DNA of 64,000 bases from Erythrobacter sp. (GTDB taxonomy: Bacteria > Pseudomonadota > Alphaproteobacteria > Sphingomonadales > Sphingomonadaceae), in assembly GCF_024305245.1 (NCBI RefSeq), contig NZ_JAMWYX010000004.1:192616-256615 (forward strand), in the 5' to 3' direction. Positions 1-9,100 of this stretch are shown piece after piece. Under the pieces are notes generated by a model, which had not been told where the DNA came from, made no database searches, and was given only the letters and a program-made list of their open reading frames with translations. The translations under genes and the position numbers were made by a program. Every line of letters begins with the position of its first letter. The stretch's first letter is position 1.

Positions 1-621
1 AAATCATTGCATTTCATGCTGGCGGCATCGGGCATTCAGGCGTGGCCGTTCGCGTCGGCGGCCGATTTCCTCGACCAGTTGCCGTTTCTGACCCCCGCGC
101 CGCTTCTGGTGGACATCCGCATGCCCGAAATCGATGGTCTGCAATTGCTGACCATCCTCAAGGAACGCGGGGTGACCTGGCCGGCTGTGATCCTGACGGC
201 GCATGGCGATGTCTCGGTCGCGGTGCAGGCGATGAAGCTGGGCGCGATCGATTTTCTGGAAAAGCCGTTCGCGGCCCAGGCGATCAATCAGGCCATCACG
301 CAGGCGTTCGACGTTCTCGACCAGATGCAGCACATGCTCTCCGCGCGCGATCAGGCGCGTTACGGTATCGCGCAGCTGACCGCGCGCGAACGTGAAACAA
401 TGGCGATCCTGATGGAGGGCGTTCCCAACAAGGAAGTTGCGCACAGGTTGGGTCTGAGCGTGCGCACGATAGAAATGCACCGCGGCAATGCGCTGGCGAA
501 GCTGAATGTCAAAAGCGTAGCAGAAGTTGTGGCGCTGGCGAATTTGGCGGGCTTCACCGCAGAAATGCAGCTGAATATCGAAAACCTCCCTGAAAATTCG
601 ACAGCCGAGCCCAGAACCTGA
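1..621 (+). CDS. FixJ/LuxR-family response regulator (REC + HTH), 5'-truncated by window edge
   Basis: Frame is open from base 1 (KSLHFML...). VDIRMPEIDG phospho-acceptor region, LTAHGDV, DFLEKPF, and C-terminal LuxR HTH (LTARERE...NKEVAHRLGLSVRTIEMHRGN). Confidence 0.9.
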   Translation, partial: KSLHFMLAASGIQAWPFASAADFLDQLPFLTPAPLLVDIRMPEIDGLQLLTILKERGVTWPAVILTAHGDVSVAVQAMKLGAIDFLEKPFAAQAINQAITQAFDVLDQMQHMLSARDQARYGIAQLTARERETMAILMEGVPNKEVAHRLGLSVRTIEMHRGNALAKLNVKSVAEVVALANLAGFTAEMQLNIENLPENSTAEPRT

Positions 622-712
622 GGCAGGATACAAACTTTCATTTGATCGTTTGATAAGGTGCAGGGACACAGGAGGCCGGTTCGAAGCAATCCGTAGAGCC
701 GGAAAACCAGCG

Positions 713-2278
713 ATGAACAAACAGGCGCATATCGGCCAACCGGGCAGTTCTGCATGCCGTCAGGCGTGGTCGGGCGCTTTGGCGCGGGCGGTCAATCGCT
801 CTCCTCTGCCGACGATCGGCACGAACACTCTGATCGAAGGCAATCCGATCATGTTCGTCAACGATGCTTATCTCGCGATGACGGGGGCAAACGGCGATGC
901 GGTTCTGTTTCGACCGGTCATGGAAGTGCTGCACGACGGGGCGGATGCTGCGGCCTTGTCCGAGTTCCGGGCGGCGCTGGAGGATGGCCGCAGCGGATCG
1001 TGGCGGATGCAACTGGCGCGTGCCGACGGCGCGGCGTTTCCGGGGGTCGTCTATATGTCGGCCATCTGCGACGCATCCGATCGGGTCATCGGTCACTACA
1101 TCAACTTCATCGATCTGGCGACGGTCGGCAGGCGGCCCCGTGAACGCCGCGCCATCGATCCCGCGATTTACGAGAACGCACCTGGCTTCATCGCAATCTC
1201 CAGAGGCGCGGACCACCGGTTCGAATACGCCAACGCCTCGTACCGAGAGTTCACGAAGCGCGATGATCTGATCGGCAAGACGGTGGCCGATGTCTTTCCG
1301 GAGCTTGCGGCTCAGGGCTTTCTCGACCTCATCGACGAGGTTTACCGGACGGGGACCCCGTTCCGCGCGTCGGATTTGCCGATCAGCATATTCGATCCGG
1401 CGACCAACAGCCTTCAGCGGCGCTGGATGGACGTGGTGTACCAGCCCTTGCGGAACACAGACGGGACGATCAGCGGCCTGTTCTGCGAAGGTCAGGACGT
1501 CACCGATCTGCACGAGATCAACAAAACTCTCGCCGCGATGGAGATGAAAATGATTCATGCCGCGCGGGTCAACGCGATGGGAACGATGGCAGCGACCTTG
1601 GCGCATGAGCTCAACCAGCCGCTGACCGCGATCACCAACTACCTCGCCGGTCTGCGCGCGAATGGCGGGCGGATGCCCGAAGCCGACCGGCTGATGATCG
1701 CGCTCGACGGCATCGGCGAGGCGACCGAGCGGGCTTCGGGCATTCTCGATCATCTCCGCCAGCTGACCAAGCATCGCAAGCCCAGGCGGGAGCCGTTCAA
1801 TCTGCGGGAAGCGGTTGCCGAATGCGTGCGTCTGGTGGGGTCTTCGTGCCGCATCGAGATTGGTTTCGACAACCGTGTCGCGCGGGAGACGACCATGATC
1901 GCCGACCGGGTCAAGATCCAGCAGGTGCTGATCAACCTGCTCCAGAATGCCTGCGATGCGATGGCGGATACCAACTGCCCGCGCGCCACCATCGCCGCGA
2001 CCGAGGACGAAAGCGGCATCACCGTCTGCATTGCCGATCATGGGCGCGGCGTATGCCCCGAAGCGGTGCCGACGATGTTTTCGTGGTCCGAAACCCAGAA
2101 ACACGAGGGCATGGGCATAGGGCTTTCGATCTGCCGCACGATCGTGGAGCTTTACCGCGGCCAGATCTGGCTCGAGAAAAGCGGGCCGGAAGGATCGGAG
2201 TTCCGGTTCTGGTTGCCGTGGCCCGCGTCGGCGGCGCCTGCCGACGATGCAGAGGGTGATGCTGCGCCGCTGTCCTAG
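713..2278 (+). CDS. PAS-PAS sensor histidine kinase (FixL-like HisKA + HATPase)
   Basis: H-box LAHELNQPL, N-box QVLINLLQNACDA, DHGRG, GMGIGLSIC. Two N-terminal PAS-like segments. Start at 713 chosen over 650. Confidence 0.9.
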   Translation: MNKQAHIGQPGSSACRQAWSGALARAVNRSPLPTIGTNTLIEGNPIMFVNDAYLAMTGANGDAVLFRPVMEVLHDGADAAALSEFRAALEDGRSGSWRMQLARADGAAFPGVVYMSAICDASDRVIGHYINFIDLATVGRRPRERRAIDPAIYENAPGFIAISRGADHRFEYANASYREFTKRDDLIGKTVADVFPELAAQGFLDLIDEVYRTGTPFRASDLPISIFDPATNSLQRRWMDVVYQPLRNTDGTISGLFCEGQDVTDLHEINKTLAAMEMKMIHAARVNAMGTMAATLAHELNQPLTAITNYLAGLRANGGRMPEADRLMIALDGIGEATERASGILDHLRQLTKHRKPRREPFNLREAVAECVRLVGSSCRIEIGFDNRVARETTMIADRVKIQQVLINLLQNACDAMADTNCPRATIAATEDESGITVCIADHGRGVCPEAVPTMFSWSETQKHEGMGIGLSICRTIVELYRGQIWLEKSGPEGSEFRFWLPWPASAAPADDAEGDAAPLS

Positions 2279-2706
2279 CGCGCGGCGGGACCTTCGGCGA
2301 ATTCCCACAACAGATCGCCGAGCCATTCGGCGCAGCGCTGCCGTGCCGGCGATGCCGCGTCCGGATCATCCAGCAGCCGGGTGACGTGCCGGGCCACGAA
2401 TTGCGAGGGGCCGGAATAGGCCATGCTCCATCGGCCGAACTGCCGTTCAGCGATCGGCGCGCGGGCGGCCACGGTGATCCCCTCATGGCGGGGATCGCGC
2501 GTGACGCTGGCCATCAGCGTGTCCACCGCCGCCGCCGGCCCTTCGAGCACCTGCGCGAAATGGTCTCCGGTGAACAGCAGCGCCCCGGTGATGCCGAGCC
2601 CCGGATTGCGTGCCCGCGACCCGGCGACGATCCGTTCGACCATGGCAGCCGCCGAAGCCGCGGACAGGGTGCTGCGGCTGACATACAGCAAGGATACGAG
2701 CTTCAC
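2275..2706 (-). CDS. Short stand-alone BLUF blue-light photoreceptor protein
   Basis: LLYVSRS, SRARN, GITGALL, FAQVLEG, DPRH and FGRWSMAY: the BLUF Tyr, Asn, Gln, His, Trp and Met are all present. Confidence 0.92.
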   Translation of the reverse strand: MKLVSLLYVSRSTLSAASAAAMVERIVAGSRARNPGLGITGALLFTGDHFAQVLEGPAAAVDTLMASVTRDPRHEGITVAARAPIAERQFGRWSMAYSGPSQFVARHVTRLLDDPDAASPARQRCAEWLGDLLWEFAEGPAAR

Positions 2707-2720
2707 GTTCGGGTTCCTTC

Positions 2721-4628
2721 CTACACGGCCTGCGCTGCCGCAGCGTTGCCGAAGCGCGCGATCATGGCGGGGACAAATGCGCCCGGCTGCGCCTTGCCGA
2801 AGTAGAAACCCTGTCCGATGTCGCAGCCGTGCGCTGTCGCGAATTCGGCCTGCGCTGCGGTTTCGATTCCTTCGGCGACCGTAGTGATCCCGAGGCTTTT
2901 GCCAAGGCCGATCAGCGCCCGGACGATCGTGGTATCGTCAAAATTGGTGCCGATCCCGCTGACGAAGGAGCGATCGATCTTGAGCACGTCCACCCGGAAC
3001 TGCTTGAGGTGGGTGAGCGAAGCGTAGCCGGTGCCGAAATCGTCGAGCGCAATCCGCACTCCGGCCTTGCTCAGTACCTTCAGCGCGCGGCCGACATGCT
3101 GCGCGCCGCGGCCCAGAAACACCCCCTCGGTCACTTCGAGTTCGATCATGCTCGGCGAAAGATCCCGCGCCGCGATTTCCTTCAGCAGCATTTCGGCGAA
3201 GGCATTGCTGCGAAAATCGGCGGCACCGGTGTTGATCGCGACATGGCCGAAATGGAGGCCGCGATCGACCCAGGTGCGGATATCGTCGAGCACCGAGGCA
3301 ATCATCTGGCTGCTGATCGCAACCGCCAGTTCGCGATCATCGAACGCCTGCGCGAAACTATCGGGCATGATCGTGACGCGATCGGGGGTCTGGCACCGTA
3401 CCAGCGCCTCGAAACCGACCAGCGCGCCCGTATCGAGGTCGATCTTCGGCTGATAATGTGCGACCAGCCGCCCCGCTTCGAGGCCTTCGCGCGCGACCGA
3501 CAGCATTGCGGTGCCACGGTCGAATTCCTCCATCAGCCGCGGGCTGAAAGTCTCGGCCCGTCCGCGCGAAAGCTTTGCTTCGGCCAGCGCGAGATCGGCG
3601 CATTTCATCAGCCCGTCGGGATCGGCGGCATGATCGGGATAGATCGCCACCCCGACGCTGGCCTTGCAACTGATCAACCGCCCGCGATGCAGGATCGGTT
3701 CGTGCAGCCGGCGGTTGAGCGAGGCGACGACATCGGCAACCTGCTCTTCGCGGTCTATGCCGCCGAGGATCACGCCGAATTCATCGCCGCCAAGCCGTGC
3801 AGCCGTGTCGGTATGGCGCAGAAGGTTGCGCAACCTTTGCGCAAACCCGCACAGCAGGGCGTCACCCGCGTCATGGCCGAGCGAGTCGTTGATCTGCTTG
3901 AAATGGTCCACATCCACGACCAGCAGCGCAGCCCGTTGGCCGTTCTGGCGGGCGCCCTCCATCGTCCGGGTCAGCAGCCGGTTGAACAGGTCGCGCCGGG
4001 GAAGGCCGGTCAGATCGTCATGTTCGGCAACATAGCGCAGCCGCTCGGTGAGTCGCGACTGCGCCACCACCTGCGAATCGCGTTCCTGCACCAGTCGCCG
4101 CAGTTCGAGCAGCGCCTCGACCTGTCCCGCCAGCGTGCGCAAGGTTTCTTCTTCCAGCGGGGTGATGCCCTGCGGGCGCGGCGTGGGATCGAATACGCAC
4201 AGGGCAGCGATGGGCGTGCCGTCGGCCGCGAGAATCCGCATCCCGGCATAAAAACGGATGTTGGGCACGCCGGCGACCAGCGGATTATCGGCGAACCGGG
4301 GATCCTCGGCCGCGTCTTTCACCACCAGCGGCGCTGCGACATCGATCGTGTGGACGCAAAACGAGACCGATAGCGGCGTTTCGCGCGGATCGAGACCCCA
4401 CCGGGCCTTGAACCACTGCCGTGTCTCGTCGATGAAGCTGATCGCCGCCGTCTTCGCCCCGGTGATCCGGGCCGCCAGCCTGACGATATCGTCGAAATGC
4501 GGCTCTGGCGCGCTGTCGAGGATGCCGTAGCGGGCGATGGCATTGCGGCGCTGCAATCGCCCATGCTCCGCTTCAGGCAGGCAGGCGAGCGCGCGCGAAG
4601 GCGCAAAGGACTGGAGCGCCGCAGTCAT
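2721..4628 (-). CDS. GAF-GGDEF-EAL diguanylate cyclase/phosphodiesterase
   Basis: GAF (YGILDSAPEPHFDDI, PNIRFYAG), HDDLTGL, RHTD I-site, RLGGDEF, GFEALVR, DDFGTGYASL. The ATG at 4628 overlaps the upstream TGA (ATGA). Confidence 0.92.
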   Translation of the reverse strand: MTAALQSFAPSRALACLPEAEHGRLQRRNAIARYGILDSAPEPHFDDIVRLAARITGAKTAAISFIDETRQWFKARWGLDPRETPLSVSFCVHTIDVAAPLVVKDAAEDPRFADNPLVAGVPNIRFYAGMRILAADGTPIAALCVFDPTPRPQGITPLEEETLRTLAGQVEALLELRRLVQERDSQVVAQSRLTERLRYVAEHDDLTGLPRRDLFNRLLTRTMEGARQNGQRAALLVVDVDHFKQINDSLGHDAGDALLCGFAQRLRNLLRHTDTAARLGGDEFGVILGGIDREEQVADVVASLNRRLHEPILHRGRLISCKASVGVAIYPDHAADPDGLMKCADLALAEAKLSRGRAETFSPRLMEEFDRGTAMLSVAREGLEAGRLVAHYQPKIDLDTGALVGFEALVRCQTPDRVTIMPDSFAQAFDDRELAVAISSQMIASVLDDIRTWVDRGLHFGHVAINTGAADFRSNAFAEMLLKEIAARDLSPSMIELEVTEGVFLGRGAQHVGRALKVLSKAGVRIALDDFGTGYASLTHLKQFRVDVLKIDRSFVSGIGTNFDDTTIVRALIGLGKSLGITTVAEGIETAAQAEFATAHGCDIGQGFYFGKAQPGAFVPAMIARFGNAAAAQAV

Positions 4629-5314
4629 TTCTGCGCCACTTGATCTGCCCCCTGCGGCTCCTGTCGCAAGCCCACCGGCGGCTCGGGCGTGCGCATCAGC
4701 CGCTGGATCGACCCCAGCGCGTCGAGGCTCAGCGATTGCAGCAGCATCACGCCGGCCCGGTCGCCGCGCACCCACCGCACACGGCCGAGTCGTTCGATCC
4801 CGGATGGCAGCGTCACCTTGAGATCGAGCCCCTCGGTCAGGCTCCCGTCATGCTCCAGCTTGAGCCCGCGCAGCGATATGTCGACCACCTTGGCACTGCG
4901 CAGGCCAACCTCGCTGCGGGTCAGCGCTGTGACCATCAACGGTAGTCTGACCGGGCGGTTGCTGCCCAATCGCGCCCCTTCCGCCAGAACCGCGAGCAGA
5001 TGCGCGCAATCGATCGGCTGATCGAATTGCAGGCCGAGATGTTCGTTCTCTTGCCAGACGACATGCCCGCGCAATTCCACGCCGTCTGCAAATTCGAGCG
5101 TGAGACTTTCCGACAGGCTCGCGGGCATCATCATGCGCAGGCCCGCACCCCGATCGGACAGGTTGGTGATTCGGGCGAGGCCTTCGTCGGTGCCGGTAAT
5201 GACGCGGGCAATGCGGAATACGGTCTGAACGCGGCCGTCGGTGCGACGATCGCCCTCCGGCAGGATAGCGCTTCCAGTCTGCGCAGTGATGGCGTGAGGC
5301 GATCCTATGGTCAT
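4625..5314 (-). CDS. Tandem PilZ-domain protein
   Basis: RRTDGR...NLSDRG in domain 1 and DISLRG in domain 2, with two GxVxW...G beta segments. Confidence 0.8.
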   Translation of the reverse strand: MTIGSPHAITAQTGSAILPEGDRRTDGRVQTVFRIARVITGTDEGLARITNLSDRGAGLRMMMPASLSESLTLEFADGVELRGHVVWQENEHLGLQFDQPIDCAHLLAVLAEGARLGSNRPVRLPLMVTALTRSEVGLRSAKVVDISLRGLKLEHDGSLTEGLDLKVTLPSGIERLGRVRWVRGDRAGVMLLQSLSLDALGSIQRLMRTPEPPVGLRQEPQGADQVAQK

Positions 5315-5462
5315 ACAGTGTCTCCCACTGCCTCTTTGCACCGCTGCAAGGCACGGGAAAATCTGTTGAACTTACCGGAACCCCATTAACCCGCGCGCAA
5401 TAACCTGGTTTAGCTTGCCGCTGCGGAAAGCTGCACTCTCCGAATCCTCGGGGATTTCCTCA

Positions 5463-6350
5463 CTAGTTGCGCGTGTGGGCCACGATTTCGTCGGCGATTC
5501 GCGCAATCAGTGGTTCGGGAATATCGTGGCCCCAGCCGGGAAACGTCACCAACCGCGCACCGGGAATCGCCCGGGCGGTGTCTTCTCCCGCCTCGAGCTT
5601 GACCAGCGGATCGTCCTCGCCGTGCAGCACCAGGGTCGGCACGCGCACATTGGCGAGCCGCGACCGGCGGCAGCCATCGTCGATGATCGCGGCAAGCTGG
5701 CGCGGCATGCCCGGCGGATAGACAGACCGGCGGACGCTGCGCAGCACCACCTCGCGCTGCCGCACCGGATCGGGGCGGTAGCCGGGGCTGCCGATATTCT
5801 TCGCGACGTCGAGGCCGCGTTGGACCAGCGTTTCCTCCTCCATGTCCTTGAGCGGCGCAATCAGCGCGTCCATCGCGTGCTTTTCCGCCTGCGGCAGCTT
5901 GCCGTTGCCGGTGGTCGACATGATCGAGGTGAGCGTGCGCAGGCGCGGGCCGTGATGCACCGCCATCAGCTGCGCGATCATCCCGCCCATCGACGCGCCG
6001 ACCACGTGCGCCGATTCGATCCCAAGCGCATCGAGCACGCCGATGCCGTCATCGGCCATGTCCTTGAGCGTGTAGGGCACCTTTGCGGGCCAGCCGACCT
6101 TCTTGCGCAATATCTGGATCGGGAGCGAGGGGGCGCGCGCGCCTTCCATCTTCTGGCTCAGCCCGATGTCGCGGTTGTCGTAGCGGATCACGCGGAAACC
6201 TTCGCCCACCAGCGCTTCGACGAATTCGTCGGGCCACAGGGTCAGCTGCGCGCCCAGACCCATCACCAGCAGGATCACCTCGCGTTCGGGGTCGCCGTGG
6301 TCTTCGTAGAAGATTTCGATGCCGGTATTGGGGGTGGTGATGGTGGGCAT
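5463..6350 (-). CDS. Alpha/beta fold hydrolase
   Basis: GASMGG nucleophile elbow, RYDNRDIGLS, LHGEDDPLV, GWGHD. Start re-chosen at MPTITT. Confidence 0.9.
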   Translation of the reverse strand: MPTITTPNTGIEIFYEDHGDPEREVILLVMGLGAQLTLWPDEFVEALVGEGFRVIRYDNRDIGLSQKMEGARAPSLPIQILRKKVGWPAKVPYTLKDMADDGIGVLDALGIESAHVVGASMGGMIAQLMAVHHGPRLRTLTSIMSTTGNGKLPQAEKHAMDALIAPLKDMEEETLVQRGLDVAKNIGSPGYRPDPVRQREVVLRSVRRSVYPPGMPRQLAAIIDDGCRRSRLANVRVPTLVLHGEDDPLVKLEAGEDTARAIPGARLVTFPGWGHDIPEPLIARIADEIVAHTRN

Positions 6351-6387
6351 TGGTGATCGGGCCTCTCGCGCAAACTCGTGCGCGCCA

Positions 6388-7317
6388 TCATTTCCACGCC
6401 GGGCCGGCGATGTCGAGGCCTTGGGCAGCCAACCGGTCGAGCACGCCGTCGCTTTCGGCCAGCACCCGCAGCGGCACGACGGCCAGCGTGACACCCGGCT
6501 GGGTTTGCGCTGCGTTGATGTTGTCGACCCAGATGGCGCGCAATTCGGTGCCGAGCGTCTCGTCCGCCCACGGCCAGCACTGGCCCAGCGCCTGTTCAAG
6601 CGGGTTCGCCATCACCGCCGGGATATCATAGCGCCGCCAGTCCGCGCCGCGCTGTTCGACGACGTCTGGCCCGCTTTCGACAGCGTCCATCGCGGCGGTG
6701 AGGCAAGGGATGTGCGCGGCGGGCGGCGCATCGGCGAGGTTGTCGATGATATCCTCACCCCGCAGGGTGGCAGCGCGGGTGATCGGGACATCGGCCTTGT
6801 CGGCGGCCTTTTTGACCACGTCGGCAGGCTCGTCGGCGGTGTCGCGGTTGAAGCGCAATTCCTTGCGCAGCATCTGAAACGAGGTGAGCAGGAAAGACTG
6901 GCGGGTGTAATCCTCGTCATGTGCGGTGCCGAGTGCGGAGAGCCGCGCCCATTGTTCGGGGGTGAGGTATTCGGGCGCCACGGTCTTGTCGGGCAGTTTG
7001 GTGAATTTCGACCCGCTGAAGATCAGCCGCAGCACATCGCCCGGAGAAATCTTGGGCCGCGCGCCGAGGATCACCCGGCTCGCCTGCGCAGTCGCGTCCT
7101 TGAGCCGGTCGGGCTGCCAAGGGGTGGTTTCGGGAATCGCCCGGATTTCCCCGACGAGGATGATGGTGCCGGTGGGGGTATCGATCGTCCACATCGGCGC
7201 ACCGGAGCGCTGCGCGGTGACGACGATGGAGTTTTCGGTGGGGGCGGGGGTTTGGGCGGTGGCTGCTGCGGGGATCAGCGCGGCAAGGCAAAGGAAAGGC
7301 AGGGTCTTTGTCATCAT
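6388..7317 (-). CDS. TraB/GumN family secreted protein
   Basis: Signal peptide, APMWTI...GTIILVG, RN-like ELRAIWVDNI and terminal GVLDRLAAQG pattern. Confidence 0.7.
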   Translation of the reverse strand: MMTKTLPFLCLAALIPAAATAQTPAPTENSIVVTAQRSGAPMWTIDTPTGTIILVGEIRAIPETTPWQPDRLKDATAQASRVILGARPKISPGDVLRLIFSGSKFTKLPDKTVAPEYLTPEQWARLSALGTAHDEDYTRQSFLLTSFQMLRKELRFNRDTADEPADVVKKAADKADVPITRAATLRGEDIIDNLADAPPAAHIPCLTAAMDAVESGPDVVEQRGADWRRYDIPAVMANPLEQALGQCWPWADETLGTELRAIWVDNINAAQTQPGVTLAVVPLRVLAESDGVLDRLAAQGLDIAGPAWK

Positions 7318-7387
7318 TGCGCCCCTTCAGGAGTTTCCCACGCGCCCTTAGCGGCGAACAGATGAACCCTATCCGAACTTCCTACGC

Positions 7388-7480
7388 CCGCTCGTGCTGA
7401 GCTTGTCGAAGCACTGCACTTACTCTTGACCCCAGCTCCAAAGACAAGTGCAGCCCTTCGACAAGCTCAGGGCGATCGGA
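7388..7480. repeat. REP-like palindromic intergenic element
   Basis: Perfect 15-bp inverted repeat CTGAGCTTGTCGAAG (7397-7411) / CTTCGACAAGCTCAG (7456-7470), extended inward by TGCACTT/AAGTGCA. Confidence 0.8.
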
Positions 7481-7498
7481 TTTTATTCGCTTTTTCCC

Positions 7499-9100
7499 CT
7501 ACGGAACCAGCACCGTATCCTTCGGCTCATCTGCCATCTCGGGATAATCCATCGTGTAGTGCAGCCCGCGGCTTTCCTTGCGGGCGAGCGCGCTTTTCAC
7601 GATCAGGTCGGCGGCTTCGATCAGGTTCCGGAGTTCGATCAGGTCGGTGGTGACGCGGAAGGCGCCGTAATATTCCTCGACCTCGCGCTTCAGCAATTCG
7701 ATCCGGTGCTTGGCGCGTTCCAGCCGCTTGGTGGTGCGCACGATGCCGACATAGTTCCACATGAACCGGCGGATTTCGGTCCAGTTCTGCTTGATGACGA
7801 CTTCCTCGTCCGAATCCGTGACGCGGCTTTCGTCCCACGGCAGGATCGCGGGCGGCGGCTCGAGGCTGTCCCAGCGTTCGAGGATGTCCTGCGCCGCCGC
7901 CTCGCCGAACACGAAGCATTCGAGCAAGCTGTTCGACGCCAGCCGGTTTGCGCCGTGCAGCCCGCTTTCGGTACATTCGCCCGCCGCCCACAGGCCCGGA
8001 ATGTCGGTGCGCGCCTGCAAATCCACCACCACCCCGCCGCAGGTGTAATGCTGCGCGGGCACAACCGGGATCGGCTGCACAGTCATGTCGATGCCCAGAC
8101 CCAGCAGCTTGTCGTAGATCGTCGGGAAATGCCCCTTCACGAACTCGGCGGGCTGATGGCTGATATCGAGATGCACGTAATCCAGCCCGAACCGCTTGAT
8201 CTGGTCGTCGATAGCGCGGGCGACCACATCGCGCGGGGCCAGCTCCATGCGTTCAGGATCGTAATCGACCATGAAGCGGCGGCCGGTTTCGGGGTGGAGC
8301 AGGTGCCCGCCCTCACCGCGCACGGCCTCGGTAATCAGGAAGTTCTTGACGTCGAGATTGTAGAGGCAGGTCGGGTGGAACTGCATCATCTCCATGTTGG
8401 AGACACGTGCGCCCGCCCGCCATGCCATCGCGATCCCGTCTCCGGTCGCGCCGCGCGGGGCAGTGGAGAACTGGTAGACGCGCCCGGCACCGCCGGTGGC
8501 GAGGATGGTGGCGCGCGCGACGTGGCGCTCGACCCGGCCGGTTTCCTCGTCGAGCGCATAGACACCCCAGACGCGCCCGGCGGCGGAGAACTGTTCGCGG
8601 TGGCGGTCGGTGATGAAATCGATGCAGGTGCGGCCCGGCAGCAGGGTGATGTTGGGATGGGCCTCTGCCGCCTTGACCAGCGCGCTCTGCACCGCCCAGC
8701 CGGTTGCATCATCGACATGGACGATCCGGCGGTGCGAATGGCCGCCTTCGCGCGTCAGGTGCAGCGCATCGGCATCGCGGTTGAACGGCACGCCCAACTC
8801 GCACAGCCGGTCGATCGATTGCGGCGCGCGTTCGATCACGAACTCCACCGTCTCGCGGTCGTTCAGCCCCGCGCCCGCTACCATCGTATCGCGCACGTGG
8901 TTGTCGAAGGTGTCGCCGGTGTCGAGCACCGCGGCGATTCCGCCTTGCGCCCAGGCGGTCGATCCGCCGGTCAGCGTGCCTTTCGCCAGCACCAGCACCC
9001 GGCGCGTCTGCGCCAGCGCCAACGCCGCGGTCAGCCCCGCCGCGCCCGATCCTATGACCACCACGTCATGCGGTTGTCGCATTGCATCCTGCATCGCCAT
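7499..9100 (-). CDS. nadB: L-aspartate oxidase
   Basis: VIGSGAAGL, AQGGIAAV, LTREGGHS, QFHPT, LAPRDVVAR, HYTCGG, GLHGANRLASNSLLE, KESRGLHY. Start may be 9082. Confidence 0.96.
   Translation of the reverse strand: MAMQDAMRQPHDVVVIGSGAAGLTAALALAQTRRVLVLAKGTLTGGSTAWAQGGIAAVLDTGDTFDNHVRDTMVAGAGLNDRETVEFVIERAPQSIDRLCELGVPFNRDADALHLTREGGHSHRRIVHVDDATGWAVQSALVKAAEAHPNITLLPGRTCIDFITDRHREQFSAAGRVWGVYALDEETGRVERHVARATILATGGAGRVYQFSTAPRGATGDGIAMAWRAGARVSNMEMMQFHPTCLYNLDVKNFLITEAVRGEGGHLLHPETGRRFMVDYDPERMELAPRDVVARAIDDQIKRFGLDYVHLDISHQPAEFVKGHFPTIYDKLLGLGIDMTVQPIPVVPAQHYTCGGVVVDLQARTDIPGLWAAGECTESGLHGANRLASNSLLECFVFGEAAAQDILERWDSLEPPPAILPWDESRVTDSDEEVVIKQNWTEIRRFMWNYVGIVRTTKRLERAKHRIELLKREVEEYYGAFRVTTDLIELRNLIEAADLIVKSALARKESRGLHYTMDYPEMADEPKDTVLVP

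Follow-up and report, generated by a model that had tools for sequence, protein, structure and literature searches.

The first 5,314 nucleotides (nt) of a 64,000-nt stretch of DNA from Erythrobacter sp. (RefSeq assembly GCF_024305245.1, contig NZ_JAMWYX010000004.1, positions 192,616 to 256,615; the whole stretch is called the window below) correspond to five signalling genes, identified from six-frame open reading frames (ORFs) and Pfam. On the minus strand, the genes of a tandem PilZ protein (PilZ2), of a GAF-GGDEF-EAL enzyme of cyclic diguanylate (c-di-GMP) metabolism and of a short BLUF photoreceptor follow each other in this order and converge on plus-strand genes encoding a FixL/FixJ-like response regulator and histidine kinase. 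This cassette is a conserved set of five genes, whose function is deduced here from sequence, synteny and precedent. We regard it as moderately probable that it forms a light-gated c-di-GMP module of the PapB-PapA type, in which the BLUF acts on the enzyme and PilZ2 reads the output, with the kinase/regulator pair as probable target. The cassette would likely extend the known split light switch PapB-PapA with a two-way enzyme, a receptor and a likely transcriptional output.

In the proposed mechanism, an operon transcribed from a promoter located around 5358-5391 would encode the two-barrel PilZ receptor, the GAF-GGDEF-EAL enzyme and the short BLUF. Blue light would switch the flavin pocket of the BLUF (Y8, Q52, W93/M95), whose C-terminal extension would then alter its contact with the EAL half of the enzyme. 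As a result, the relative rates at which c-di-GMP is made and degraded would change, light favouring degradation by analogy with PapB-PapA, while the GAF domain may provide a second input and the I-site a feedback by the product. PilZ2, whose domain 1 carries the canonical binding motifs, would read the local c-di-GMP. The signal would then most likely reach the convergent FixL/FixJ-like kinase and regulator, and through them transcription, as no further genes remain associated with the module. In this proposal, flavin binding is inferred, and so are all contacts among the proteins, the direction in which light acts and the target of PilZ2.

Gene arrangement and conserved motifs

The minus-strand genes are tightly packed. 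The TGA stop codon of the PilZ gene (4627-4625) and the ATG start codon of the enzyme gene (4628-4626) overlap by 4 nt as ATGA, and the kinase and BLUF genes, which end at 2278 and 2275 respectively, are separated by zero intergenic DNA, with no terminator between the convergent operons. An earlier reading made from the letters alone (the sequence-only reading) had claimed the ATGA overlap, a 14-nt gap before the BLUF gene and a 4-nt overlap of the BLUF and kinase ends, all of which are exact in the sequence. Its identification of PilZ2, GAF-GGDEF-EAL, BLUF and a FixJ-like pair agrees with Pfam for every gene and its location, and the GGDEF, RxxD I-site and EAL motifs that it described as intact were found and are invariant among orthologues. 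The coordinates of the features are given in Table 1.

The enzyme matches the Pfam profiles EAL (8e-61), GGDEF (2e-42) and GAF (1.5e-14), and its solved GGDEF-EAL relatives are 5m3c (at 5e-83), MorA and DosP. The cyclase motifs are an RHTD I-site at residue 271 and GGDEF at residue 280, whereas the EAL motifs are EALVR (407), DDFGTG (529), KIDRSF (550), EGIET (586) and QGF (606). Eight orthologues, with 62-84% identity, all keep RxxD, GGDEF, EAL, DDFGTG, KIDRSF, EGIET and QG unchanged. Judging from this motif set, the EAL domain appears catalytically competent and the enzyme is probably bifunctional, i.e. able both to make and to degrade c-di-GMP. The mycobacterial GAF-GGDEF-EAL enzymes MSDGC-1/DcpA and Rv1354c have been reported to be bifunctional. 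They display the same three-domain architecture as the window enzyme, although they have no BLUF partner, and the likeness is one of domain order.

The 143-amino-acid (aa) photoreceptor carries a BLUF domain alone, followed by a C-terminal extension of about 45 residues. It matches the full Pfam profile PF04940 (positions 1-92) with 93.8 bits for a cut-off of 25 bits (E 7e-27). Its closest solved structure is BlrB (2byc, 1.4e-18), and the BLUF domain of BlrP1 matches at 2e-9 to 7e-9. The residues involved in the BLUF photocycle are a Tyr and a Gln of the flavin pocket, a Trp/Met pair on strand 5 and an Asn contacting the flavin. The corresponding residues Y8, N34, Q52, W93 and M95 are present and invariant across the eight cassette orthologues, from which flavin binding and a photocycle are predicted. 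The tail of the protein (AYSGPSQFVARHVTRLL...WLxDLLWEFAEGPGA) is kept in all cassette orthologues, and the position of the GTG start codon matches their start.

In PilZ2, the Pfam PilZ profile (PF07238) matches two stretches (9.5e-20). Domain 1 includes RRTDGR (23) and NLSDRG (51), i.e. RxxxR and NxSxxG motifs, which are invariant in 21 homologues, and domain 2 includes DISLRG at 145 (DxSxxG) together with the invariant R120 and R123. As a sequence search against solved structures returned nothing meaningful, a fold search was needed. In the AlphaFold model (pLDDT 83), a helix links two beta-barrels; its best Foldseek matches are the two-barrel c-di-GMP receptors PlzA, MotI, MrkH and YcgR (E 2e-6 to 2e-4, probability 1.00), with TM-scores of only about 0.3 and sequence identities of 10-15%. 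Like YcgR, MotI/DgrA, PlzA, MrkH, PP4397 and VCA0042, PilZ2 has two barrels and an arginine motif in the linker preceding barrel 2. Unlike in these receptors, its N-terminal barrel is itself a canonical PilZ domain (RxxxR, NxSxxG), not of the PilZN type, and the motif of its second domain is degenerate (xRxxR). Its homologues form 48 clusters with 48-74% identity, mainly from metagenomes and Erythrobacter-type genomes. The genome to which the window belongs encodes a second tandem PilZ protein (C19:280116-280628). It also has EAL and PilZ domains in common long frames of 921, 756 and 674 aa (C1:179149-180159, C1:181351-182340 and C9:19015-20034), which suggests EAL-PilZ fusion proteins elsewhere in this genome.

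The regulator matches Response_reg (8e-20) and GerE (9e-17); its first 36 codons precede the window, and the genome sequence supplied its N-terminus, which includes a VIDDD acidic pocket. The kinase matches two PAS domains (5e-18 and 6e-13), HisKA (2.5e-9) and HATPase_c (7e-21), and its core aligns with the LOV-FixL chimera YF1 (4gcz, 1.6e-39). Its His box LAHELNQPL is conserved, and phospho-acceptor motifs are present in both the kinase and the regulator. Comparison with Erythrobacter sp. NFXS35 indicates that the kinase probably starts at the ATG at 713 rather than at the TTG at 650, the first start codon of the frame. The NCBIfam FixL model gives the kinase 154 bits for a cut-off of 850 and covers its core only, and the FixJ model, which is the best match of the regulator, gives 176 bits for a cut-off of 255. 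This two-component pair is therefore FixLJ-like but is not FixLJ, and no NCBIfam equivalog was obtained for any of the five cassette proteins. The first PAS domain of the kinase (PAS1, window 830-1120) aligns to LOV domains (YtvA/YF1), with the Cys, Arg and Gln of NCRFLQ replaced by Val, Met and Leu, respectively; it is poorly conserved among kinase orthologues and absent from one of them (L146). The possibility that the kinase is a LOV photoreceptor was rejected since these flavin-binding residues are replaced, and the kinase is therefore not considered as a light sensor itself.

Table 1. Coordinates of the cassette genes and associated features in the window
Feature	Position	Strand	Basis
FixJ-like response regulator, REC + LuxR/GerE helix-turn-helix	1..621	+	Pfam; start 108 nt before the window
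PAS-PAS-HisKA-HATPase histidine kinase, cytoplasmic, FixL-like core	713..2278	+	Pfam, structure match
CTAG palindrome giving the TAG stop of both the kinase (+) and the BLUF (-)	2275..2278	.	Sequence
Short BLUF photoreceptor, 143 aa, GTG start	2275..2706	-	Pfam, structure match, orthologues
14-nt spacer GAAGGAACCCGAAC, with Shine-Dalgarno-like GAAGGAA before the BLUF GTG	2707..2720	-	Sequence
GAF-GGDEF-EAL enzyme, 635 aa	2721..4628	-	Pfam, solved relatives, invariant motifs
Tandem PilZ protein (PilZ2), 229 aa, encoded first in the putative operon	4625..5314	-	Pfam, AlphaFold model, fold matches
Predicted hairpin of the 5' untranslated region, Shine-Dalgarno GGGAG (5326-5322) in its 3' arm	5322..5358	-	ViennaRNA
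Promoter-like motif GGTTAAT-N6-CCGGTAAGTTCAACAGATTTT, -63 to -44 from the PilZ2 ATG	5358..5391	-	Conservation

Conservation of the cassette and loss of the BLUF gene

The order PilZ2, GAF-GGDEF-EAL and BLUF, facing the kinase and regulator genes, was found in at least five other Erythrobacter-related lineages (L144/145, L146/147, L149, L150 and L151, the last being Erythrobacteraceae D8_MAG_00085), usually with the 4-nt overlaps of the window; the convergent overlap in particular recurs in L144, L149 and L150. Judging from the source name of the protein P0022 and from the identical gene layout, L144/145 appears to be Sphingomonadales CG_2015-02_63_24 (L160). The flanks differ for each copy and include OEP, HWE kinase, riboflavin, Ppx-GppA, phage lysozyme and tricorn protease genes. 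As the flanking genes are different each time, the five genes persist as a unit. This bears on two proposals of the sequence-only reading, according to which the minus-strand trio could be a self-contained circuit and could also be linked to the neighbouring kinase. The trio indeed recurs in several lineages, tightly packed with 4-nt overlaps, and the suspected link gains weight from the convergent pair, which stays with it while the flanks change. By contrast, the self-contained trio has to be abandoned, since the unit that is kept includes five genes and the BLUF gene is the part that is lost. In the genome G179, the trio is found alone, with the kinase/regulator pair located 160 kb away.

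Loss of the BLUF gene is observed in Erythrobacter sp. NFXS35, the closest relative, and in R86502, both of which keep the PilZ2, GGDEF-EAL, kinase and regulator genes. The BLUF is thus a dispensable part of the cassette and, because it is absent from these two strains, the other four genes can work without it. In NFXS35 (L141 9594-9638, compared with window 2243-2721), a spacer of about 40 nt between the stop codons of the kinase and enzyme genes replaces the BLUF gene; it holds a GGCCGGGGCC palindrome and GAAGGAG. In the BLUF-less L148, the GGDEF-EAL and kinase genes themselves display the 4-nt convergent overlap. Since all the more distant cassette lineages have a BLUF gene at this position, two separate losses, one in NFXS35 and one in R86502, are the more economical explanation. 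These two strains are natural isolates that carry the module lacking the BLUF only.

At the DNA level, the flanks are 90-92% identical between NFXS35 and the window, whereas the regulator-kinase stretch is only 78% identical. Synonymous divergence (dS) is 0.16 for PilZ2, 0.15 for the adjacent hydrolase gene and 0.18 for nrdA, but reaches 0.48 for the GGDEF-EAL enzyme, 0.61 for the kinase and 0.78 for the regulator; the corresponding ratios of non-synonymous to synonymous divergence (dN/dS) are 0.17, 0.15, 0.11, 0.12, 0.30 and 0.19. In this comparison with a BLUF-less strain, PilZ2, enzyme, kinase and regulator are therefore all under purifying selection (dN/dS 0.12-0.30). The tract from the regulator to the enzyme, inside which the presence or absence of the BLUF gene lies, shows a synonymous divergence 3-5 times that of the flanks, which suggests allele exchange, or else faster divergence of this tract.

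A pattern search with the PilZ2 alignment, restricted to one genome per species, retrieved only five loci, which indicates that the full cassette is confined to a narrow group. In a metagenome-assembled genome (MAG) of Erythrobacter (L142), a paralogous regulator-kinase-BLUF-regulator operon, whose genes are 26-38% identical to those of the window, lies just upstream of PilZ2 and enzyme genes that are 65-84% identical. In L146/L147 (P0035), the gene call for the enzyme is split into two ORFs (GAF-GGDEF and GGDEF-EAL), and the short kinase, of 385 aa, is devoid of PAS1; this copy may be decaying, or the split may result from a sequencing frameshift. Just upstream of it, riboflavin genes (ribBA and ribH) are divergently oriented.

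Neighbours, fusions and partner of the BLUF

The neighbourhood of 104 BLUFs related to that of the window, from genomes of the family and from other phyla, was analysed over flanks of 7-8 kb. The tree of these BLUFs consists of two halves of 51 and 53 rows. Signalling neighbours were found for 32 of the 51 BLUFs of the first half, whereas 52 of the 53 BLUFs of the other half have no such neighbour. A GGDEF/EAL gene is adjacent or fused in 22 of the 51, almost always directly upstream and on the same strand, and a FixJ-like regulator and/or a kinase is found near 16 of them. The neighbour labels change 21 times along the tree, for a mean of 32.2 after shuffling, none of the 200 shuffles being as low. 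Since the window genome carries only 15 EAL and 12 GerE genes in 3.5 Mb, chance adjacency would be about 1-2%, the value for the EAL genes being about 1%. Pairs in which an EAL gene precedes a BLUF gene were found in Erythrobacteraceae relatives, Allosphingosinicella, Acidobacteriaceae and Caldimonas, and the (GGDEF-)EAL-BLUF pair is thus widespread in Sphingomonadales, Acidobacteriaceae and Burkholderiales.

In one genome (G063, L119 7863-10010, minus strand), GGDEF, EAL and BLUF domains are parts of a single protein, the BLUF being C-terminal. A search with this protein retrieved at least 43 clusters of GGDEF-EAL-BLUF fusions of about 690-712 aa from Sphingomonas spp. (P0050-P0092), such as an 'EAL domain-containing protein' of Sphingomonas lenta. 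Their domain order is the gene order of the window, and the BLUF of the G063 fusion belongs, like the window BLUF, to the EAL-associated half of the tree. Unlike the window genes, these fusions encode one polypeptide, in which no GAF domain was matched and a weak, sub-threshold PAS match is N-terminal; at the one fusion locus examined (L119), there is neither PilZ2 nor kinase pair. Such fusions, which are classical evidence of this kind, suggest that the BLUF and the EAL enzyme work together physically, and they show which domains belong together. The analogy with PapB and PixD that the sequence-only reading had drawn, both binding a partner protein, is therefore apt, given the widespread EAL-BLUF pairs and these fusions. 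Among the long BLUF frames examined, that of G063 is the only true fusion. The frames of 719-788 aa around the BLUF in G104, G140 and G109 were rejected as spurious high-GC frames, the stretch upstream of the BLUF in G104 and G140 looking like an EAL gene read out of frame. The GGDEF-BLUF frame of Rhizobacter L032 includes an in-frame ATG just before the BLUF, so that its status as a fusion is ambiguous.

To our knowledge, PapB-PapA is the single studied case of a split BLUF/EAL light switch. In Rhodopseudomonas palustris, the short BLUF PapB and the EAL protein PapA associate in a complex, the C-terminal helices of PapB transmitting the signal; likewise, the window encodes beside an EAL enzyme a stand-alone BLUF with a C-terminal extension, for which light control via a complex is expected (PMC8846402). 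This likeness is one of gene adjacency and domain make-up, PapB not being among the Protein Data Bank matches to the window BLUF. Unlike PapB-PapA, the window has a tandem PilZ receptor in the same operon and a linked kinase/regulator pair. In BlrP1 from Klebsiella and BluF/YcgF from Escherichia coli, a BLUF is also joined to an EAL domain or controls it, but is N-terminal and in the same chain, whereas the window BLUF is separate and encoded after an enzyme that includes GAF and GGDEF domains. A fusion of the BlrP1/BluF type was ruled out for the cassette, the genes being separated by a stop codon and the 14-nt spacer. Full-text literature searches, whose coverage is incomplete, returned no account of the cassette, of the family of GGDEF-EAL-BLUF fusions or of any BLUF associated with a FixJ-type pair.

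Several observations weigh against the action of the BLUF on the enzyme and the reading of its product by PilZ2. The partner enzyme has three domains, with an intact cyclase site and I-site, whereas PapA is a solo EAL protein. In domain 2 of PilZ2, the arginine motif is xRPVR, i.e. the first Arg of RxxxR is missing, a variant common to the orthologues. NFXS35 and R86502 keep the other four genes in the absence of the BLUF. For ten of the 51 related BLUFs, the neighbourhood includes a FixJ-like regulator, alone or accompanied by a kinase, but lacks an EAL gene. Furthermore, many rows are near-duplicates, such as those of six Acidobacteriaceae and two Allosphingosinicella MAGs, so that the neighbour counts overstate the number of independent events. 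Finally, two genomes carry kinase, regulator and BLUF genes in this order on one strand: in G043 a GGDEF-EAL gene is intercalated before the BLUF gene, whereas in G109 the BLUF gene follows after a 25-nt gap, with no EAL gene beside it. The whole G109 genome holds no orthologue of the BLUF-adjacent GGDEF-EAL of G043 (best identity 41-43%), and yet the tails of the two BLUFs are nearly the same.

It is accordingly possible, if somewhat unlikely, that the real partner of the BLUF is the FixJ-like regulator or the PAS kinase, light controlling phosphotransfer or DNA binding, and that the c-di-GMP genes are a parallel input to the pair or a target of it; such an action is compatible with that on the enzyme. 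PixD works with the regulator-like PixE, and AppA with PpsR. The pair PixD-PixE from Synechocystis, a short BLUF acting via a nearby-encoded receiver-domain protein related to PatA-type regulators, provides a model, although the window regulator, unlike PixE, is a FixJ/NarL-type DNA-binding protein that has its own kinase. The BLUF could have the regulator or kinase as partner because related BLUFs adjoin the pair in the absence of an EAL gene: FixJ-like regulators, accompanied or not by a kinase, lie beside the EAL-less BLUFs of L004, L099, L105, L106, L108, L109 and L110, to which the pair and BLUF of G109 and the four-gene operon of L142 add further cases. An orthologue of the kinase is rare (5 of 200 genomes of the family) and yet is adjacent to a BLUF gene in two of these five (G043 and G109) and in the window, and GerE-type regulators number only 12 in the genome. 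The LOV-like PAS1 devoid of flavin-binding residues leaves the kinase with no light sensor of its own, and a review describes both PixD and PapB as acting via partner proteins (PMC8846402 for PapB). On the other hand, the window BLUF gene is translationally coupled to the enzyme gene, whereas the kinase and regulator genes are on the other strand, and in G179 the trio is far from the pair. Fusions join the BLUF to GGDEF-EAL and none to a kinase or regulator was found in the search with the G063 protein, nor did the literature searches find any BLUF-kinase or BLUF-FixJ interaction. If the BLUF does act on the FixJ-like pair, light would enter two-component signalling in a new way.

Three pairings occur in nature, i.e. 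BLUF with the pair (G109), BLUF with the enzyme (G179) and enzyme with the pair (NFXS35 and R86502), which a functional interaction among the three would explain most simply. A bolder arrangement, which we consider unlikely, would be a three-way hub of BLUF, enzyme and FixJ-like pair. The BLUF would then be a detachable light-input subunit docking on both the regulator or kinase and the EAL domain, and PilZ2 would feed the c-di-GMP level back onto the pair. It would explain the survival of all three pairwise gene combinations and would amount to a switch of transcription under the joint control of light and c-di-GMP. In Pseudomonas aeruginosa, the PilZ adaptor HapZ, which has a single PilZ domain, gates the phosphorelay of the hybrid histidine kinase SagS. 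It offers an example of c-di-GMP status reaching a two-component system through a PilZ protein; for the window, such a link is proposed from the conserved gene neighbourhood only.

A pathway leading from blue light to c-di-GMP and then to a PilZ protein, as in the proposed module, is known in the same bacterial group: in Erythrobacter (Qipengyuania) flavus 21-3, LOV-1477 acts on DGC-2902, mPilZ-1753 and finally TsdA (PMC12172448, PMC10267684). There, the REC-GGDEF cyclase is phosphorylated by a LOV kinase, and a single PilZ protein of 123 aa serves as receptor (PMC12172448, PMC10267684), whereas the window encodes a BLUF sensor, an enzyme devoid of receiver domain, a 229-aa tandem PilZ and a kinase whose PAS domain lacks the flavin cysteine. 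PilZ2 was rejected as an orthologue of mPilZ-1753, given the size and single domain of the latter.

According to another explanation, which appears quite improbable, the genes are neighbours by shared regulation or history only and the BLUF signals to an unlinked partner, for instance a PpsR-type factor. The genome encodes six BLUF domains in 3.5 Mb, two of them AppA-like, which makes light signalling redundant and spread out; the BLUF is lost in close relatives that keep the other genes, and all such neighbours are missing around 19 of the 51 related BLUFs. Against this, the same types of components adjoin in many orders and orientations in three families of Sphingomonadales and in two further phyla or classes, GGDEF-EAL-BLUF fusions exist, and the neighbour labels cluster on the tree. 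It is highly improbable that the BLUF is no working photoreceptor, i.e. that it is a regulatory subunit devoid of flavin or insensitive to light, or that its gene is decaying, as might be proposed from its disappearance in two relatives and from the raised synonymous divergence of a locus in flux, since its frame is intact, its photocycle residues and tail are kept in eight lineages and its Pfam score is far over the cut-off.

With the BLUF acting on the GAF-GGDEF-EAL enzyme, sensor, enzyme, receptor and likely output would be encoded by five adjacent genes, which makes a complete path from light to gene expression testable. Its study could clarify what determines the partner of a stand-alone BLUF and whether it is common for PilZ adaptors to gate two-component systems, and parts of the cassette could serve as small light-controlled tools.

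Upstream region, leader and other BLUF loci

Upstream of PilZ2, at 63-66 nt from its start, nine of the ten lineages have a motif GGTTAAY-N6-9-CCGTAGNTTCAACAGATTT, although their upstream genes differ. Its conservation at a fixed distance indicates that the putative operon begins with PilZ2. The housekeeping promoter consensus of the Caulobacter type is TTGACGS-N10-14-GCTANAWC; the PilZ2 upstream motif resembles it and is a putative promoter. A scan for promoters of the E. coli type found none before PilZ2, and predicted terminators were at chance level, one of them being inside the BLUF coding sequence. The PilZ gene has its ATG at 5314, and an in-frame GTG is located further upstream, at 5341.

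In the predicted fold of the PilZ2 leader, a UCCC stretch pairs with the Shine-Dalgarno sequence GGGAG. Among nine lineages folded with ViennaRNA, at least part of the Shine-Dalgarno-like match is inside a stem in most, despite sequence differences; folding z-scores range from -1.6 to -4.7 in five of the nine and are -0.3 or weaker in the other four. A consensus fold of the leader, computed on a poor alignment, gave no structure. These predictions weakly suggest a hairpin that would sequester the Shine-Dalgarno sequence of PilZ2. The Rfam search over 1-7500 found no riboswitch or other RNA family; a weak match to AaHKsRNA41 (7397-7470, minus strand, 24 bits for a gathering score of 97, E 0.027) is probably due to chance. 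A motif resembling CCGTAG..CAG.TT precedes the regulator gene in three lineages; it is not clear in the window and was not used.

The genes flanking the cassette in the window are not related to signalling. An alpha/beta hydrolase gene lies upstream of PilZ2 on the same strand, after a 148-nt gap, and ribonucleotide reductase genes lie upstream of the regulator gene.

The other BLUF genes of this genome include two tandem short BLUFs (C2:84258-85154), one BLUF at C1:562238-562768 and two proteins of about 350 aa that associate a BLUF with a B12-binding-like domain (C21:95395-96450 and C21:145411-146463, plus strand). The layout of the latter is AppA-like, i.e. a BLUF plus a SCHIC-type domain, and an AppA-like BLUF gene is located directly upstream of PilZ2 in L144/L145 and L160. 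Two Allosphingosinicella MAGs (L002 and L007) carry a 10-kb island that groups two short BLUFs, two such PAS kinases and a FixJ-like regulator with GGDEF-EAL, GAF-GGDEF and further GGDEF genes.

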